A stretch of 64,000 nucleotides of DNA from a virus. Both the position numbers and the translations under genes were made by a program. Under the pieces are notes generated by a model. It made no database searches. It had not been told where the DNA came from and saw only the letters and a list, made by a program, of their open reading frames with translations. The DNA lies in IMG/VR virus record IMGVR_UViG_3300043411_001114, positions 1-64,000 of that record; one strand, written 5' to 3'. Shown here one piece after another: positions 2,003-10,000 of the stretch (position 1 is the first letter of the stretch; each line of letters begins with the position of its first letter).

Positions 2003-2536
2003 ATGATGTTCCGTCCGCCGCTGTCGAACCCGACTCAGAAGCGCACCCTGCGTCCCCTGTACGCCAACTACCAGGCGACACCTTGGGCAGGCTTTCTGGA
2101 CCCGGATCTCGACGTCGACTTCGACATCCTTCCCGGCACCGTCATGCAGCGTCTGTATGGCGAGGTCTTCGCTCCCTACACCGGAGAATCGGGCACCGTC
2201 CCCTTCGGTCTCTCGGCCCTCTTCGTCGCCCCCAAGCTGGGCGTCAACGAGGTTTCCTCGTCCGGCACCGGCCTGTTCACGGTCTGGGTCGGCGGCGATC
2301 AGGCGGTCTTCGAGGTCTTGGCTCCGGCCTTCGACATCGAGGCGACCTGGCCGACCACGACCGGCCCGAGCCGTGTCATGCTGACCGCCAACGACAAGGG
2401 TCGCCTGACCCCCGAAGGCGTGACCGCAGAAAATGCCATCGCGGAACTGATCGACATCCCGTCGACCGACAAGATCGTCGTCCGCCTCAACCGTCTCGAC
2501 CTCTCGTCGACGACCGACCTGGCAGGGGGTAGCTAG
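2003..2536 (+). CDS. Putative capsid decoration/minor capsid protein
   Basis: 177 aa with a strong SD (AGAAAGGAGG), between the scaffold-like and major capsid genes. Confidence 0.65.
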   Translation: MMFRPPLSNPTQKRTLRPLYANYQATPWAGFLDPDLDVDFDILPGTVMQRLYGEVFAPYTGESGTVPFGLSALFVAPKLGVNEVSSSGTGLFTVWVGGDQAVFEVLAPAFDIEATWPTTTGPSRVMLTANDKGRLTPEGVTAENAIAELIDIPSTDKIVVRLNRLDLSSTTDLAGGS

Positions 2537-2538
2537 CC

Positions 2539-3540
2539 ATGAGCCTCCCAGTGGCAGCCGGAAGCGGCCTCGGGCGTTTCGCCCGGGCGAGCGACGACTA
2601 TGTCTCCGACATCGTTTCCGCAAAGCAGCGGCTCGGCGGGCGCAAGCTCTCCGCCCGCGAGAAGCAGGCCAAACTCGCTCACATCCTGAGCGACAAGACC
2701 GGCGGTATTCAGCGTCTGGGCCAGTCGATGATCGGCCCGATCCAGTTGCAGCTTCGCTACCAGGGCATCCTGCGTAACGTGCTTCTGGAGGACACCCTGA
2801 CCCCGGGCGTGCCGATTTTCTACGACGTGCTCGATGACCTGGGGCGTGCCTACATGCTCCACGGCAACGAGGGCGAGATCAAGATCACCCCCTTCGAAGG
2901 CAAGCGTGTCGAGGTGCAGCTGTTCCGCATCGCCTCGTTCCCGCAGATCAAGAAGGAAGATCTGTACTACCTCCGTAGCAATATCGTGGAGTACACCCAG
3001 GACATGACCAAGCAGGCGATCATGCGGCAGGAAGACTCCCGCCTGATCACCCTGCTGGAGGCGGCGGCGGTCTCGTACCGCGCGGTCGATGCCTCCTCGG
3101 TTCCGGGTACCGGCGCTCTGCCGAACGAGATCACCGTCGCAGGTACCCACCTGCAGCCGGATGACCTCTACACGGCGGTCACCTGCACCGATCAGCGGCA
3201 GCTGGATTCCAGCCGCCTGCTCTGCAATCCGCAGGAGTACCGCGACTTCTACCGGTGGGACATCAACACCACCGGCTGGGCGTTCAAGGACTCGGTCGTC
3301 GCCGGTGAGCGGATCGTGCAGTTCGGTGAGTTCCAGATCGGCAAGTCGATCATCGTCCCGCGTGGCACGACCTACCTGACGCCCGATCCCGAGTTCCTCG
3401 GCGTCTTCCCGGTCATGTACTCGCTCGATGTGGAAGAGGACAATCGCGTCGCTCACTTCCACACCGGATGGGTTATGGACGAACTTGTTGGGATGGCGGT
3501 CTTGAACCCCCGCGGTATCGTTATACTTCGTAAGGCTTGA
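2539..3540 (+). CDS. Major capsid protein (HK97 fold)
   Basis: 333 aa with a typical MCP C-terminus (GWVMDELVGMAVLNPRGIV), strongly biased codons, and a downstream terminator. Confidence 0.85.
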   Translation: MSLPVAAGSGLGRFARASDDYVSDIVSAKQRLGGRKLSAREKQAKLAHILSDKTGGIQRLGQSMIGPIQLQLRYQGILRNVLLEDTLTPGVPIFYDVLDDLGRAYMLHGNEGEIKITPFEGKRVEVQLFRIASFPQIKKEDLYYLRSNIVEYTQDMTKQAIMRQEDSRLITLLEAAAVSYRAVDASSVPGTGALPNEITVAGTHLQPDDLYTAVTCTDQRQLDSSRLLCNPQEYRDFYRWDINTTGWAFKDSVVAGERIVQFGEFQIGKSIIVPRGTTYLTPDPEFLGVFPVMYSLDVEEDNRVAHFHTGWVMDELVGMAVLNPRGIVILRKA

Positions 3541-3573
3541 GTCTAAAAAAACGCAGGTCAGACGTAGTAAAGT

Positions 3574-3606
3574 AAAGCCCCGCATCTTTCGAGATGCGGG
3601 GTTTTG
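3574..3606. terminator. Intrinsic terminator, possibly bidirectional
   Basis: AAA-GCCCCGCATCT-TTCG-AGATGCGGGGT-TTT: UUCG loop with A/T tracts on both sides. Confidence 0.85.
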
Positions 3607-3688
3607 CTATTACCAGGATTAAGCATCGTCATTCCGACCAATTCATTCATAACCCAACTCTTCAGTAATGCGACACAATGAAAAAGCG

Positions 3689-3697
3689 TGCTATAAT
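3689..3697 (+). promoter_or_regulatory. SigA-type extended -10 promoter (leaderless transcript) of the endonuclease gene
   Basis: TGcTATAAT, 7 nt before ATG 3705, with no SD. Confidence 0.65.
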
Positions 3698-3704
3698 GGT
3701 TTTT

Positions 3705-4691
3705 ATGGCACCCGGAATAAAACACCCACGAAGAGGTGAGGCGCTGGAGTTGTGGCTCCAGGGGCACTCCTGCAGAAATATCGCGAAAATGCTTTCCGTC
3801 ACCGACAGGAGCGTTCGGGACTGGCGGGACGCGGATGGATGGCCAGAGCAAAAAATCACCCTTCCTAAGGGGTATGACTCAAGCGGTCGCAAGGAAAAAG
3901 TCGATGCCGAGTTTGCCGCCGTGCGTGAGGAACTTGCAGTCGTGTGGGAGAAATCCATTCAGCCAAGAAGGGTTGGAAGCACGGGAATAGTGATGCAGGG
4001 TTCCGCTCATCGAGTCGCCGAACATTTCGGCTGGTCTCCATCCAAGACAATCAAGTTCCTCAAAAGGGCGGGATTACTCACCCCCAGGCCGTCTAACAAG
4101 ACGCATGGAGGCAGGGCCGCCGAGCTGTTTGAATCGGGATGGTCTGTCCCCCGAATAGCGACCGAGGTCGAGGTTAGTGAAGACACGATAAGATCCTGGC
4201 TGAAAAAGCGAGGACTAGATCTGTCGAATCACCACGATCGCCGTTCACACGAGGAGAAAATCGCCTTCCGACAGGCAATCAGTGATGGCCGGGGCGGTTC
4301 GGTGGTGGGTAACGGAAGATTCAAATACAACGATGTCCGAATGGACTCCTCATGGGAAGTTCGTTTCGCCAAGAATCTCGACCGGCTCGGTGTCGAGTGG
4401 ACTGTATGGGATCGAGAGCGGGACGGCACCGTGGAGATTCCCGGCGAGGTCGTTGGCCGTTACTCCCCCGACTTCCTGGTCGGTGATCTTCCGGTGGAGA
4501 TTAAGGGTGTCTATGACGCCACGGCGGCTCTCAAGGTGTCCACCTGGCGTAAGGAGCGCGGCAGACTTGCGGTCGTGATGAGGAACGAGCTACTCGAACT
4601 GGAGTCAGCCAGAACCGCCGAGGAAGCCATCGCCATCCTCCAGGCCTTTTGTTACCTGGACCCTCCGGCCAGAAGGGATGGCTGGTCTTGA
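3705..4691 (+). CDS. Free-standing putative homing endonuclease (HTH repeats plus PD-(D/E)XK domain)
   Basis: HTH-like segments (RNIAKMLSVTDRSVRDW; PRIATEVEVSEDTIRSWL) and a C-terminal MDSSWE...YSPDF...VEIKG nuclease motif. GC is lower than in the flanks. Alternative start 3678. Confidence 0.7.
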   Translation: MAPGIKHPRRGEALELWLQGHSCRNIAKMLSVTDRSVRDWRDADGWPEQKITLPKGYDSSGRKEKVDAEFAAVREELAVVWEKSIQPRRVGSTGIVMQGSAHRVAEHFGWSPSKTIKFLKRAGLLTPRPSNKTHGGRAAELFESGWSVPRIATEVEVSEDTIRSWLKKRGLDLSNHHDRRSHEEKIAFRQAISDGRGGSVVGNGRFKYNDVRMDSSWEVRFAKNLDRLGVEWTVWDRERDGTVEIPGEVVGRYSPDFLVGDLPVEIKGVYDATAALKVSTWRKERGRLAVVMRNELLELESARTAEEAIAILQAFCYLDPPARRDGWS

Positions 4692-5050
4692 TGAAAATTC
4701 CATTCAAAGAAGTTCTTGAAATGATCGAGTGGCTGCACGATGACATGGGGCTATCGTCGGTCGTGACGGGTACAGAATTAGCCGCCCTTCTGGCCGAGAC
4801 GTTGGTTTCGGTCAGGGACCCGTTCTGCACCACCTGCGACGTCAACACGATGGAGGTTGGCGAGTACTACATGGTCGACCACGCTTTATGGAATCGTTAC
4901 GGGGTAGGAAAGGGGATGATGTGCATCGGTTGTCTGGAGGACAGACTGGGACGCGAATTGGTTTCATCCGACTTCTCTGACGTTCCTATCAACACTATGG
5001 ACACCGACTTAAGATCAAAGCGCCTCAAGGCTAGGCTGGGTTTGCTATAA
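4691..5050 (+). CDS. Small Cys4 zinc-binding hypothetical protein
   Basis: TGATG overlap with the upstream stop; CTTC...EYYMV..ALW...CIGCLE.RLGR motif. Confidence 0.7.
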   Translation: MKIPFKEVLEMIEWLHDDMGLSSVVTGTELAALLAETLVSVRDPFCTTCDVNTMEVGEYYMVDHALWNRYGVGKGMMCIGCLEDRLGRELVSSDFSDVPINTMDTDLRSKRLKARLGLL

Positions 5051-5087
5051 TTAAAAGACACCACCACCCACCCCCAAGGGAGTCATC

Positions 5088-5264
5088 ATGGCCACCAACT
5101 TCGACTACGAACTCTCGCACTTCGGCAACATCTGGGAGATCAGGGCCATCAGCCTCCCCGTCACCCTCGACACCAGCGTGCCCACCGAGTCGCTCGTCGC
5201 CACCTTCTTCAGCGAGGACGAGGCCATGACCGCCTGGGAGCAAGTCACGGAAGCCGCTTTCTAG
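5088..5264 (+). CDS. 58-aa hypothetical protein (not in ORF track), MATNFDYELSHF...EAAF
   Basis: TGcTATAAT at 5043-5051, CA-rich leader, AAGGGAG SD and high-GC3 codons. Confidence 0.75.
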   Translation: MATNFDYELSHFGNIWEIRAISLPVTLDTSVPTESLVATFFSEDEAMTAWEQVTEAAF

Positions 5265-5275
5265 ACCGTCCCTCC

Positions 5276-5330
5276 CCTGTCAACACCCCGACGGGCCTCC
5301 TCAATAGGTAGAACGAGGAGGCCCGTTTCC
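5276..5330 (+). promoter_or_regulatory. Late-promoter-like motif within a 12-bp terminator/RBS-sequestering hairpin
   Basis: CCTGT-N22-AATAGGTAG. Stem ACGGGCCTCCTC (5291-5302)/GAGGAGGCCCGT (5315-5326) contains the SD. Confidence 0.65.
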
Positions 5331-6950
5331 GTGTCCAGAATCATCCGCGCCACAAGTAAGACTGCAGTTCGTTTGCGCCTACCCGAAACTCAGTCCAAGG
5401 GTTTGGATGCTCTGGGTATCACCCAACGCAAGCTCAATGGAAACTTCATGAGTTGGATGGACACCCTCTCGGATCAGGACAAAGCCGAGGGTGGTTTGTG
5501 GTACCCCACCGGGAACGACTGGGGCCATTACATGTCTCAGTTGCATGGCGCGCATCCCGACAAGGTGTTCGGGGTCATGTCCAAGATGTCTCCCCAGCGT
5601 GACTGGCACGGGAACCTTGACGACGTTCACATGATCGCCTCTAACTATCACCAGAACCCTGACGCAATCAGGAGACCCCCGGGCATTTCTGGAAACGACA
5701 ACCTCAAACAATCTTTACGTGTCTTCGGCGCAGAAGACGACCCTGACGCTATTCATGCTGCCTTCCTGGGAACCAAGAAGAACGGCAGAGGTCAGCTGAT
5801 CCCCCGGCTTTCTAAAGACCTCCCCAAGACCTACGACTTCTATCAGGCACTGCGGGACCCAGAGACCGGCGGGGCGGGCAATTACATGCTCCACCCTGCT
5901 GTTGTCGACTCCTGGATGAGTCGGTCGATGCTGTGGTCGAAGAATGCCTGGGATAAAGCCCAGGCTGGTGGTAGGCCACTGTCGTGGCCGGGTAAAGGCA
6001 CCGGTGAGGGGTTGGACAAGCATCTCCCTGTCAAGAAGCTGAATCCAGAAACGGGAGAGTATCAAGTCGTCGGAACCAGACCACCGAACGCTCGCGACGT
6101 TGCGGCCCGGGTGGTGGGCCTGAGTGGCGGCTATGACCGGATGCGTAACGCCATGCGTAACGGTGCGGCAGTTCATGACATGCCTTTCTCGCATGGTGCT
6201 CAGGCCGCCGTGTGGAAGGCCATCAGTGGTAACGCCAACCCTGATCCAACACCCCAATATGGCGATCTTTCTGAGATTCATCATGATCCGCGCGGACTGT
6301 GGAACGAGATGTGGGCACGCCGGGCCAGCGGACTGCACGTCCCTCAACAGCAGGGGATCACCGCCCACCGCACCGCTGCTCATGGGGTGACTCCGGGAGA
6401 CCCTCACGGCCCGGAGGATTCGCACGATGAAGGCTGGGGAACCCCCGAGGACGTCATGTCGATGATTCGTCATGTCCAGATGGGGCCACCCGGATACGAC
6501 CACTGGGAAGGCGGACCTCAAGGAATGTCATTCGATAGCGTTCCGCACCCCGGGCCTCCTGAGCGTGGATATGTCATGGCGGCCTCCCGCAGCAACGATC
6601 CCGACGCGCCCCAGGCCTTCCTGGGCCACCTGGCGGCGTTCGACGACTTCGACGAGATCATGGGCGGCCAGAGTTTCCCCCATCAGATGGACGGCGGTTC
6701 GGGCGGCGACCACCCCTGGAAGGGTGAGTACGCCGACGCGCTGAGGGCCGGGTGCAAGTATTGCGGTGCCGACCCGGACGAGATGTGCGATCCGCACTGT
6801 CCGACCAACCACAGCGAGGACCCCAAGGTCTGGGAGCGCGACTACAAGGCGCTCGGCGGGCCACCGGCCAAGGCGGTCGACGACACCATGTTCCGACTGA
6901 ACAACGTCCGCGACGTCCTGGGCTACGTCAACAAACTGCTGTCTGAGTAG
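5331..6950 (+). CDS. Hypothetical protein with HhH-glycosylase-like N-terminal domain; possible internal virion protein
   Basis: Motifs G.LWY...GV.SKMSPQ.DW..N, K..DF, VVDSWM.R and QAAVW. Acidic/His-rich tail with CxxC. Confidence 0.5.
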   Translation: MSRIIRATSKTAVRLRLPETQSKGLDALGITQRKLNGNFMSWMDTLSDQDKAEGGLWYPTGNDWGHYMSQLHGAHPDKVFGVMSKMSPQRDWHGNLDDVHMIASNYHQNPDAIRRPPGISGNDNLKQSLRVFGAEDDPDAIHAAFLGTKKNGRGQLIPRLSKDLPKTYDFYQALRDPETGGAGNYMLHPAVVDSWMSRSMLWSKNAWDKAQAGGRPLSWPGKGTGEGLDKHLPVKKLNPETGEYQVVGTRPPNARDVAARVVGLSGGYDRMRNAMRNGAAVHDMPFSHGAQAAVWKAISGNANPDPTPQYGDLSEIHHDPRGLWNEMWARRASGLHVPQQQGITAHRTAAHGVTPGDPHGPEDSHDEGWGTPEDVMSMIRHVQMGPPGYDHWEGGPQGMSFDSVPHPGPPERGYVMAASRSNDPDAPQAFLGHLAAFDDFDEIMGGQSFPHQMDGGSGGDHPWKGEYADALRAGCKYCGADPDEMCDPHCPTNHSEDPKVWERDYKALGGPPAKAVDDTMFRLNNVRDVLGYVNKLLSE

Positions 6951-7062
6951 ACGAGGGACACCTGGGCATAAAAACCTCCACCCCTGTTTCCCGCTCCCTG
7001 ACGGTCATGAATAAGTAGCGGGGACTGCCGTCCCTGACGCTCCGTAGTCAGAGGGTGGTTGC

Positions 7063-10000
7063 ATGTCGTCGAAGTGGGTGGACGCCAACGGCAACCAGTG
7101 GCGTTTCTCGGCGGCGACCAATACCTGGCAGGCCCTGGTCAACGGCCGCTGGGTCGCCAGACCGCTGCCCGCCGGTGGCCTGAAGCGAGGCGACCTCGAC
7201 CGCTACAAGCCGGGCACGGCCATCGTCGAGACGATGGGTCCCCCGGGTGCCTCGGGCGCTCCGGGGCCGATGATGTCTGTCCAGCCGCTGAACACCAAGA
7301 GCACACCCGACGACGATGACCAGTTCATTCTGGCCGACTCCGACGACTTCTGGAATCTGCGCAAGATTTCCTCGACCGACCTCAAGTCGGCGATGCTCAA
7401 CCACGTCTACACCACGGAGGTCAGCCTCAGCAACAAGACCCTGATCAACCCCCGGGTCTCCGACACCATCCGCGACGGCGCGGGCGGTTCGGTGCTCAAG
7501 ATCGAGGGCGCTTCGGGGTCGGTCAACCACCTGGCGGTCCGGTCCTCGGCGACCGGGAACGCGGTCGGGCTGGCGGCCACCGGTAGCGACGCGGCGATCA
7601 ATATCGCGATCGACCCCAAGGGCGCGGGCCAGGTACTGCTCGGCGGTGTCCCGGCGGTCACCACCACCGGCACCCAGACTCTCACCAACAAGACGATAAG
7701 CCTCACCAACAACACTCTGGTGGGGACGATCGGTCAGTTCAACACCGCCCTGACCGGGGCCGACTTCGCGACCATCGCCGGGACCGAGACCCTCACCGGT
7801 AAGACCCTGACCTCCCCGACGATCACCGGGGCCTCAATCACCGGCTCGTCGGTGACCGGGGCGAGCGCCCTGTCGATGGGTAACACCACCCTCACCGGCA
7901 CCACAACCCCGCTCTTCCTGAGCCTGGGCGGCACCTACGGAACCAGCACCGCCGGGAGTGCGGCCAACCTCAAGCTCAAGGTGCACGAGGACACCTCGGC
8001 GGCCTTCGGGCTGGGCATCTCGACCTCCAACCTGGAGTACCAGGTCCCGCTGTCGAACTACGCGCACCGTTTCTACGCCGGTGGCACCGAGGTGGCGGCG
8101 ATCACCTCGACCGGGATCACCGCATCGGGGGTGGCGGTTCCGACCGTCTCCTCGACCAGCACGTTGACCAACAAGACCCTGTCCGGAGCAAACAATACTT
8201 TCTCTGCGGTTCCTCAAAGCGCTGTCACGAATCTCACGAGCGACCTGGCGGCCCGGGAGTTGGCCGCGAACAAGGGCCAGCCGAGCGGTTATGCGAGCCT
8301 GGACTCGGGCGGCAAGGTTCCGGTCACTCAACTCCCGCACTCGATCATGCAGTACCAGGGGACCTGGAACGTCTCCACCAACACCCCCGCGCTGGCTGAT
8401 GGATCGGGCGACACCGGAGACGTGTACCGGGTCACGGTCGGCGGCTCCCGGAACCTCGGCTCCGGCTCGATCACCTTCGACGTCGGCGACTACGCCATCT
8501 ACAACGGGACGGTCTGGGAGAAGTCGGACACCACCGACGCGGTAGCCAGCGTCAACGGCTACACCGGCAACGTCAGCCTGAACAAGTCCGACGTCGGCCT
8601 GGGCAATGTCGACAACACCTCGGACGCGACCAGGAACGCCGCGTCAGCCACCCTGACCAACAAGACGATCAGCCTCGGCTCCAACACGGTCACCGGGACG
8701 GTGGCCCAGTTCAATACCGCACTGTCGGACGGCGACTTCGCCACTCTGGCGGGCACCGAGACCCTCACCAATAAGACCATCACAGAACCTAAAATCAGCA
8801 CTGTTCGGCATCCGACAGATAACCAGGCGTGGCTGAGTTCTGTTTCCGGCAGCCTGGTGTACATAAGCCCGAATGGGAATTCGGCTCTTCAGGTTGGATC
8901 GGTAGCGTCTGCTGTCAATTATGTTCGGATCACGGGGGCGGCTACAGGCGTTAATCCGGCAGTTACCAGTTCTGGCACCGACACGAACGTATCACTGGAA
9001 CTCAACACCAGAGGTTCGGGAACTGTCAAGGCCAACGGTGTCGATGTTGCAACAATCAGCGGGGCGCAGACTTTAACAAACAAGACCATTTCCGGTGCAT
9101 CTAACACGATCACCAACCTGCCCGCGAGTGCGACCCCTGACGCGGCACGATTGGTGTGCAAGACCGCGACCGGCGGCTCGGGGGTCGAGAACGGAGCGAA
9201 CACCTGGGCGAAACTGGTGACGCTCACGCCTGCCGTCAATGGCTCATGTGCGCTGCTGCTGGGGATTACGACCGGTACGTCATTTCAGCCGCAAACCGCC
9301 ATACTCCAGGTTTGGGCCTATGCCACTCAACCCAGCCCCGCACTGCCTTTGGTGGCGGTGCAACTGATCGGGATGCCCAACAGCGGCTACGCCTTCTACG
9401 CCGACGGATTCAAACTTGTCAACAACGGCTACGGGCAGCCGGTTGAGTTGTGGATTAAGAAGTCCGATCAGTACACCGATTTCAGTGTGACCGAGATTTC
9501 CCGCTCGGTGTCAGGCACGGTCACCTATAACAACAATGCGGCCTGGCAGTCTGCGGAGCCGACCGGTTCGGCGATCAACACCCGTTCCACCGGGGTCACG
9601 ATTTCCGGTGTCCCGGTTGTCACCACGACGGCCACGCAGACGTTGACGAATAAGACGTTGACCAGCCCGACAGTTAACAACATCTTCAACAACAGCGTTA
9701 GGGCAATCAATTTTTCGTCAGCCGCTGGCGCTGTTGACTATTTTGATGTTAACAACGCTACCGGCACTGTCGGGCTACGGGCTTTAGGGACTTCGACTAA
9801 CATCGGAATCACGCTTGAACCTAAAGGCAACGGCAAAACATCAATCTACGCAGCAACTGGGCAGACACCTGCCATTGCTGCCACTGGTGCCGACGCCAAC
9901 CACTCCCTGAATCTTGTTCCCAAAGGTTCTGGCACGGTTCAGGCTAACGGTGTCCCGGTTGTCACCACCACCGGGGCGCAAGACCTCACCAATAAAACTT

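Follow-up and report, generated by a model that had tools for sequence, protein, structure and literature searches.

An inverted copy of the capsid-gene tail beside the promoter of a free-standing homing-endonuclease gene, possibly a target mimic

The 64,000-nucleotide (nt) window analysed here, positions 1 to 64,000 of the 112-kb IMG/VR virus record IMGVR_UViG_3300043411_001114, carries a major capsid protein gene followed by a gene that we read as a free-standing homing endonuclease. Between them, past the capsid terminator hairpin (3577-3601) and ahead of the nuclease promoter, 56 nt of the minus strand (3613-3668) copy the capsid codons FHKGWVMDELVGMAVLNP. The interpretation that we favour, tentatively and as something short of probable, is that this copy is a target mimic (pseudo-target) acting as operator of its own nuclease in the manner of I-TevI. 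In what follows, WIN denotes the capsid locus of this window, and L001-L095 are the labels of the compared loci. The features at the centre of the argument are these:

2539-3540, plus strand: major capsid protein gene, 333 amino acids (aa), identified by nucleotide identity, Pfam and relatives
3457-3512, plus strand: capsid stretch matched by the inverted copy, FHTGWVMDELVGMAVLNP plus 2 nt (profile positions 19-74)
3577-3610, both strands: capsid terminator hairpin (3577-3601) and T-tract, terminator-like on either strand
3613-3668, minus strand: inverted 56-nt copy of the capsid stretch, from profile, repeat search and alignment
3670-3697, plus strand: nuclease promoter, with -35-like GCGACA (3670-3675), a 16-nt spacer and extended -10 TGcTATAAT (3689-3697)
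3705-4691, plus strand: free-standing homing-endonuclease gene, 328 aa from the probable ATG at 3705, called from its helix-turn-helix (HTH) modules, structural model and residues

The inverted copy and its occurrence

A first-pass annotation of this DNA had described an inverted, codon-degenerate copy of the 3' end of the capsid gene between the terminator and the endonuclease promoter, with mostly synonymous or transition differences. Our alignment bears out both the copy and the character of its differences, and finds it larger than claimed. The reverse complement of 3615-3656 reads WVMNELVGMTMLNP and the capsid gene at 3469-3510 reads WVMDELVGMAVLNP, with 29 of 42 nt identical, ungapped and in frame. 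The 13 mismatches fall on codon positions 1/2/3 as 5/0/8 (the probability of no position-2 mismatch is 0.005), and ten of them are transitions. On the promoter side the copy reaches 12 nt further (3657-3668), with minus-strand codons for LLKS opposite the capsid FH(K/T)G, and at its full length of 56 nt it spans the codons for FH(K/T)GWVMDELVGMAVLNP. What was copied is a stretch of the capsid tail and not its extreme end: counted back from the end of the stop codon, the copy covers nt 84-28, so that the last nine codons (RGIVILRKA) and the stop are left out.

Degenerate copies of this kind were found only by a nucleotide profile, which was built from 66 unique capsid tails with the inverted copy kept out; a regular expression for the peptide, allowing up to five substitutions, matched the WIN copy alone. 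The profile matched the minus strand from 3668 to 3613 with an expect value (E) of 1.1e-8 in 394 kb of downstream DNA, and searched over the whole window it returned the same match with E 3.6e-9. In a repeat search the copy and its capsid counterpart formed the longest inverted pair within 2400-5400, and throughout the 112-kb record 3613-3668 is the sole extra copy of the capsid stretch. According to an exact search with the back-translated peptide WVMNELVGMTMLNP, no IMG/VR capsid encodes it.

For the comparison with relatives, we assembled 80 capsid loci from IMG/VR, where the capsid has 88 relatives, and further loci obtained via the nuclease alignment. The site past the capsid terminator is a hotspot, occupied by a nuclease of HTH type, by one of Cys-rich type, or by nothing. 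The HTH type is found there in WIN, L088, L044 and L046, with a variant in L050/58, and the Cys-rich (Zn) type, which has the same nuclease domain, in about eleven lineages including ScottMcG. The capsid bodies are 95.8-99.8% identical though an HTH-type nuclease, a Zn-type nuclease or none stands behind them. We then counted the unique loci with a minus-strand copy no more than 260 nt past the capsid stop. Such a copy was present in 4 of 15 nuclease-bearing loci (WIN, L044, L020/21 and L057; 11.5-31.8 bits, E 2e-10 to 5e-4) and in 0 of 41 nuclease-free loci, where the best score was 6.9 bits; the Fisher estimate for this difference is about 0.004. The near-identical L088 carries the copy in the same place as WIN, and the inverted capsid-tail copies of L020/21 and L057 accompany a sister nuclease type. 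Overall, five or six independent cassettes have a copy, two of the profile matches being individually modest, and the order of terminator, copy, promoter and nuclease gene is constant in every one of them.

The copy also seems to be retained above the saturated neutral background. Between WIN and L044 the nucleases share 59% identity and their 4-fold degenerate sites 24%, which is saturation; the two copies are identical at 37 of 56 positions (66%), ungapped, with a p value of 3e-7. The L044 and L046 copies are 57% identical (p 4e-4). Across the cassettes of WIN, L044 and L046, synonymous sites are 24-38% identical and copies 48-66%. Among the other blocks shared by WIN and L044, identity is 69% in the terminator (69-71% among the three cassettes), 63% from the -10 to the ATG and 45% in the spacer. 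The best-kept parts of the copy are its promoter-proximal 17 nt and a distal GATTAAG block.

From the promoter-proximal end of the copy, at 3668, it is 2 nt to the -35-like hexamer and 23 nt to the -10; in L020 the copy extends to about 13 nt before the predicted -10. The nuclease promoter, on the plus strand and downstream of the copy, was the only promoter-like site found in 3400-3800. Our open reading frame (ORF) listing starts the nuclease at an ATG at 3678, upstream of the -10, and the conserved MAPG start is at 3705. The -10 and the 7-nt gap to the ATG are kept in L044 and L046. Since the ATG at 3705 lies 7 nt past the -10 and this is conserved in three cassettes, the nuclease mRNA is probably leaderless.

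A further property of the copy is how little it resembles the capsid tail beside it. Its own tail matches at 35 of 56 positions, near the bottom of the 66 alleles, and that of L003 at 34 of 56; the best-matching tails are those of L033 (43/56) and L044 (42/56). With its K-type codons and low GC the copy resembles the L044/L046 clade, and it is AT-rich like the cassette (GC falls from 0.60-0.70 to 0.43-0.58 across about 3450 to about 5070). On this composition and similarity we take the copy to have arrived together with the cassette. The option of the first-pass annotation that the copy is the displaced original 3' end finds no support in its literal form, given a copy that is least like resident tails, AT-rich and travelling with the cassette. 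A direct tail remnant was also sought, and none was found within the 3.2 kb downstream of the WIN capsid stop, which cover the nuclease gene and the next genes. The low similarity of copy and own tail would be as expected if the own tail were immune and the copy kept the susceptible form.

Several other candidates were tried and rejected. Recent gene conversion from the own capsid tail fails as this tail is among the least similar alleles. The minus-strand ORF 3558-3851 overlaps the nuclease start, has a Leu to Ser change in the L088 copy and reads a stop at the Trp position in L046, so that it is not conserved and does not look like a gene. By strand logic the copy would not serve as a homology arm aiding homing, since invasion there would put the nuclease gene inside the capsid gene and reversed. 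The terminal inverted repeats of a transposon would not enclose the terminator alone with the nuclease gene outside, as these arms do, and a cruciform substrate is unlikely given the 106-nt spacer and 31% mismatch.

The nuclease cassette and its junctions in the capsid tail

The protein behind the copy has the parts of a nuclease with a long DNA-binding array. The Pfam families HTH_23, Terminase_5 and HTH_28 match two stretches of it, and an AlphaFold model built with 13 homologues (predicted local distance difference test score 78.5) contains three HTH modules and a C-terminal alpha/beta domain. The structural matches of the latter have middling Z scores: VRR_NUC 6.6, TnsA 6.4, Vsr 5.8, I-Bth0305I 5.5, Bax1 5.5 and Hjc 4.9. 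The match to I-Bth0305I (3r3p_B, Z 5.5, root-mean-square deviation 3.5 over 83 residues) is tied with those to other PD-(D/E)xK folds, and Foldseek matched the catalytic domain of I-Bth0305I with prob 0.84 and TM 0.59; with the full-length model Foldseek gave nothing at E <= 1e-3. In an alignment of 13 sequences, numbered by the reference P0001, the residues E227, D265, E274 and K276 are invariant in all 13 homologues and form the motif E...PD...ExK, and the string EDxHD is absent from the invariant and near-invariant columns. Judged by model and residues, the C-terminal domain is a PD-(D/E)xK-like nuclease, although the protein matches no Pfam nuclease family. On the same model, three HTH modules would suffice for a footprint of about 50 bp.

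The catalytic residues, the HTH modules, presence or absence at a fixed locus and the exchange junctions described below are traits of homing cassettes, and by these we class the gene as a free-standing homing endonuclease cassette with its own promoter and with no intron or intein. With the cassette as query, neither blastn nor tblastn found this HTH-type protein in 50,697 cultured phage records, and a single-protein scan of IMG/VR for the nuclease gave none. The nuclease domain is 29% identical (E 1e-6) to that of gp97 of ScottMcG, encoded at the same locus. ScottMcG gene 97 (L001:4105-4806) is annotated as an 'HNH endonuclease' with its start at locus position 4330, and an in-frame ATG 225 nt upstream of the annotated start adds Cys-rich repeats; with a nuclease domain homologous to our modelled restriction-fold domain, the gene is probably mislabelled as HNH.

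Evidence on the target comes from pairs of loci with near-identical capsid bodies and different downstream DNA:

L044 (HTH) and L043 (Zn): capsid bodies 99.5% identical, diverging in the last 57 nt before the stop
L001 (Zn) and L018 (no nuclease): capsid bodies 99.8% identical, diverging in the last 42 nt before the stop
WIN (HTH) and L003 (Zn): capsid bodies 95.8% identical, diverging in the last 67 nt before the stop
3510-3511, no strand: likely break or insertion point between Pro and Arg codons, placed by the end of the copy and the start of the displaced tail in L019
3435-3540, plus strand: capsid tail with clustered AT-ward synonymous changes, from the WIN-L003 comparison and GC content at third codon positions (GC3)
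3233-5350, plus strand: 2.1-kb module common to WIN and L088, more than 99% identical between flanks that differ by more than 20%

As the three pairs diverge only in the last 42-67 nt, the exchange junctions lie inside the copied stretch. L019 helps to place the break. There, in a typical insertion scar, the right half of the original capsid tail (SGIVILRKA and stop) has been displaced, together with the old terminator, to 637-700 nt past the capsid stop, where it follows a truncated remnant of a Zn-type nuclease and one further ORF. In profile coordinates the displaced tail starts at 73 and the WIN copy stops at 74; because the two coincide, the break or insertion probably fell at the Pro|Arg junction (3510/3511). 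The capsid stretch 3457-3512 would then be the left half of a homing site, and the copy a second version of that probable left half. It is from junctions and break points only that we infer the capsid tail to be the homing site.

The tail of the WIN capsid gene bears signs of exchange too. In comparison with L003 it is about 97% identical per 60-nt bin over the preceding 540 nt, and only 50 of 60 positions agree in the last bin. GC3 of the tail falls to 0.50, likewise in L046 and L044. These AT-ward changes could be either a co-conversion patchwork or immunity changes.

The cassette appears to have moved not long ago. WIN and L088, an environmental phage, differ at 18 of 80 positions left of 3232, at 0 of 308 in 3233-3540, at 4 of 164 in the intergenic region and at 7 of 987 in the nuclease gene, with sharp breaks at about 3232 and about 5351. 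The module so delimited comprises the capsid tail, the nuclease, the downstream gene orf119 and a 58-aa ORF. Identity above 99% between flanks more than 20% divergent indicates that the module moved recently between phages, and hence that the nuclease is or recently was mobile.

Homologous nucleases also occur beside other genes, and the first-pass annotation had proposed to look there for inverted copies of the respective neighbour. The outcome is mixed. In L095, from a Mycolicibacterium metagenome-assembled genome, a 42% nuclease homologue follows a DEAD/DEAH helicase gene, and between helicase and nuclease (L095:1991-2209) lies a degenerate copy of the helicase's last 65 codons, in direct and not inverted orientation. 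This helicase-tail copy has 37% protein identity (E 2e-7) and its own stop 85 nt before the nuclease start; it holds VSGLKFSVAL, a protein-identical run of ten residues whose DNA differs at third positions only. On this sequence evidence a copy of the neighbour's 3' end upstream of the nuclease recurs with a second target gene; being long and in direct orientation, that copy agrees with a recombination scar no less than with a mimic. L089, a 48% homologue in a bacterial-type context whose start codon overlaps the stop of the upstream gene, has no copy. In L087/L093 a gene about 300 nt past the stop of a capsid gene (77% identity) matches the middle HTH part only, with 35% identity over nuclease residues 61-201 and no match to the nuclease domain; this gene may be a DNA-binding remnant, either domesticated or truncated.

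Operator mimic, scar or RNA element

If the copy is an operator mimic, events could run as follows. The three-HTH array would bind about 50 bp of capsid-tail sequence; in a nuclease-free capsid allele the PD-(D/E)xK-like domain would cut near the Pro|Arg codons, and repair would copy the cassette in. The same array would bind the copy, where the sequence past the break point is unrelated and no productive cut would result. Protein bound there, at about -37 to -92, would stand against the -35 of an extended -10-dependent promoter and could tune its own transcription, by autorepression as in I-TevI or by activation. The copy may have originated as a captured broken end that was later kept for operator use. 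Because it ends at the break point, it would comprise a single half-site and exclude the break region, the same logic as in the operator of I-TevI. As the mRNA is probably leaderless, capsid read-through would go untranslated, making the promoter the control point. Nuclease binding to both sites, and the direction of regulation, we infer. The first-pass annotation had listed a homing-site mimic acting as operator or decoy among its options, and from the junctions, the break point, the adjacency to the -35 and the retention of the copy this option appears to fit best.

A number of observations weigh against an operator mimic. The copy adjoins the promoter but overlaps neither the -10 nor the start, unlike the I-TevI operator. 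The WIN and L046 copies are 48% identical, which is not above background, and the L046 copy is not significant by profile, being homologous to that of WIN and L044 by synteny only. By profile, no copy is found in L050/58, where the nuclease is homologous with a different N-terminus, nor in about nine Zn-ribbon-type cassettes. The differences between the WIN and L044 copies fall on codon positions as 7/7/5, without codon phase, so that wobble-tolerant recognition is not demonstrated. The intergenic region is a mosaic, its post-stop segment being 25% identical between WIN and L044 and 61% between WIN and L046; the copy block could therefore be younger than the gene. Between WIN and L088, 2.4% of intergenic and 0.7% of coding positions have changed, one of the changes falling in the copy. 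Finally, scars of target 3' ends do exist around related nucleases, in L019 and L095.

These scars lead to the alternative that stands up best, which we consider possible but rather unlikely: that the copy is an unused relic, a broken capsid-tail end captured in inverted form (by end-joining filler, fold-back or template switch) at the ancestral insertion and decaying since. Such a capture would explain why the boundary of the copy is the likely break point and why the copy always has the same inverted orientation directly after the hairpin, and relatives with plain scars, the displaced tail of L019 and the 65-codon direct pseudo-copy of L095, provide precedents. Decay has been uneven, with about 8 bases found in no capsid allele in the WIN copy and about 18 in the L044 copy; most Zn-type cassettes have no copy, and the WIN copy has acquired one recent substitution relative to L088. 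Decay alone sits poorly, however, with copies 57-66% identical between cassettes whose 4-fold sites are at 24-29%, or with a promoter-proximal 17 nt that is the most conserved part. No such relic occurs in nuclease-free loci (0/41), and a simple terminator fold-back would also copy the 67 nt that separate the hairpin from the tail stretch, which the other arm does not have.

An element acting as RNA seems to us improbable. Here the copy would pair with the capsid mRNA tail in read-through RNA, forming a long stem around the stop codon and the terminator, as a processing or insulation signal (e.g. an RNase III site) that keeps capsid and nuclease expression apart or as an antisense element against capsid mRNA from co-infecting phages. 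The fold of 3455-3672 does pair the arms, at -89.6 kcal/mol and z -7.6 with no shuffle as stable, and the arms also pair in the L044 and L046 RNAs (z -6.1 and -4.7), compared with -3.2 to -3.7 in copy-free loci. On the plus strand G-U pairs result from six of the ten transitions, and T4 homing-nuclease genes are under the control of RNA structures and terminators (PMC2988022). Co-adaptation is nevertheless missing: among duplexes with the 66 alleles, that with the own tail takes rank 35 in WIN and ranks 3, 16, 24 and 29 in other cassettes, and the identity of the copy to its own tail is near the bottom of the distribution. The low own-tail similarity together with this median pairing rank disfavours both selection for pairing and recent duplication or conversion. 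Moreover, the copy would be transcribed only upon terminator failure, the start codon of the nuclease lies outside the stem, masking in read-through RNA would be needless for a gene that is probably leaderless, and Rfam gave nothing above threshold.

The further idea of the first-pass annotation, a small guide or antisense RNA made from the copy that would programme the nuclease, is highly improbable and we set it aside: a target-like sequence does lie beside a nuclease gene and the hairpin could end a minus-strand transcript, but nothing promoter-like is found to the right of the copy on the minus strand or to its left on the plus strand, a minus-strand transcript would be sense and not antisense to the capsid mRNA, no RNA family matches, the nuclease has a conventional multi-HTH DNA-binding array and a restriction-type fold, and the copy of the helicase-linked relative is direct and 200 nt long.

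Free-standing homing nucleases are major drivers of phage mosaicism. To our knowledge, the target site and the restraint on expression are known for hardly any of them, and we know of autoregulation by target mimicry so far only in the intron-encoded GIY-YIG enzyme I-TevI. If the copy is an operator mimic, target-mimic autoregulation would extend to free-standing restriction-fold nucleases of actinophages, and the pseudo-site would let computation alone point to the half-site that is recognised and to the place of the cut, here Pro|Arg of a highly conserved capsid tail. Even as a mere scar, the copy would mark the break point and document how cassettes settle and are swapped behind an essential gene. 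A bolder generalization, which we regard as unlikely, is that turning a captured half of the cut target into a cis-regulatory pseudo-site is routine in this nuclease superfamily; the pseudo-site would end exactly at the cleavage point because it had begun as a broken end, and would be kept through recognition by the DNA-binding array. Were that rule true, genomes would directly reveal what uncharacterised free-standing homing nucleases recognise and where they cut, and the capsid-tail copies of two architectures and the Mycolicibacterium helicase-tail copy would be instances of one rule.

Flanking features and known systems

Two further features complete the locus:

3550-3562, minus strand: 13-nt motif TCTGACCTGCGTT in reverse orientation, from comparison with L005, L044, L017 and L050/58
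4691-5050, plus strand: orf119, the right flank of the cassette, its start overlapping the nuclease stop

At the DNA level the capsid gene itself shares 83% identity with major capsid genes of Bixzunavirus (cluster C mycobacteriophages), and its protein has a weak Pfam match to Phage_capsid_4. The motif TCTGACCTGCGTT stands in forward orientation just past the capsid stop in L005, with 12 of its 13 bases in L044 and variants in L017 and L050/58; in WIN and L088 it is the exact reverse complement, and L046 has a degenerate form. In the forward-orientation loci it is able to pair with the CGCAAGG codons of the capsid gene. The product of orf119 (phrog_6053) is 71% identical to that of the gene after the different nuclease of L003. 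In the closest nuclease-free relatives (L005-L013), a homologue of the 1842-aa gene that starts here at 7063 is found about 100-200 nt past the capsid terminator, and by this comparison 3541-7062, with the nuclease, orf119, the 58-aa ORF and a 539-aa ORF, represents 3.5 kb in a hypervariable insertion hotspot. The metagenome contig L094 is a frameshift-ridden version of the L050/L058 locus, the frameshifts being probably sequencing errors and not pseudogenes.

Our search of the literature returned no description of an inverted copy of a neighbour's end within such a cassette, nor do the passages of PMC2988022 and PMC10448857 that we searched contain one. The closest parallel is the operator of I-TevI, the autorepressor of the phage T4 td intron (Edgell et al. 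2004; review PMC2988022), where a homing-site-like sequence lies at the endonuclease promoter. It is bound in the same way as the target, shares 15 of 20 nt with the homing site and lacks a cleavable sequence at the right distance; it overlaps a late promoter within the intron, and the enzyme is of the GIY-YIG family. Here, by contrast, the copy is 56 nt long, inverted, codon-phased and located upstream of the -35, its operator role is putative, and the enzyme is a free-standing actinophage nuclease of HTH and PD-(D/E)xK-like parts.

In its arrangement the cassette resembles the T-even seg and mob nucleases and the boundary nucleases of ICP1-like and other phages (PMC2988022; PMC10448857): they have their own promoter, lie between conserved essential genes, are polymorphic for presence and absence and form sharp junctions in the neighbouring essential gene. 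Capsid neighbourhoods hold 31% of T5orf172 nuclease genes (PMC10448857). Those enzymes differ from the present one in being GIY-YIG, HNH or T5orf172 nucleases with other DNA-binding modules. In structure there is a likeness to I-Ssp6803I and I-Bth0305I (PMC3239194), which join a restriction-endonuclease-like fold to separate DNA-binding parts; those two are intron-encoded, and the nuclease described here has no sequence-level membership in their family, no EDxHD string and middling Z scores. Nucleases of the ScottMcG gp97 type in cluster C occupy the same locus after the capsid terminator with a homologous nuclease domain, and two cassettes of this type in uncultured relatives (L020/21 and L057) have an inverted capsid-tail copy as well. 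They have N-terminal Cys-rich (CxxC) repeats in place of HTH modules, and ScottMcG and most cassettes of this type are without the copy.

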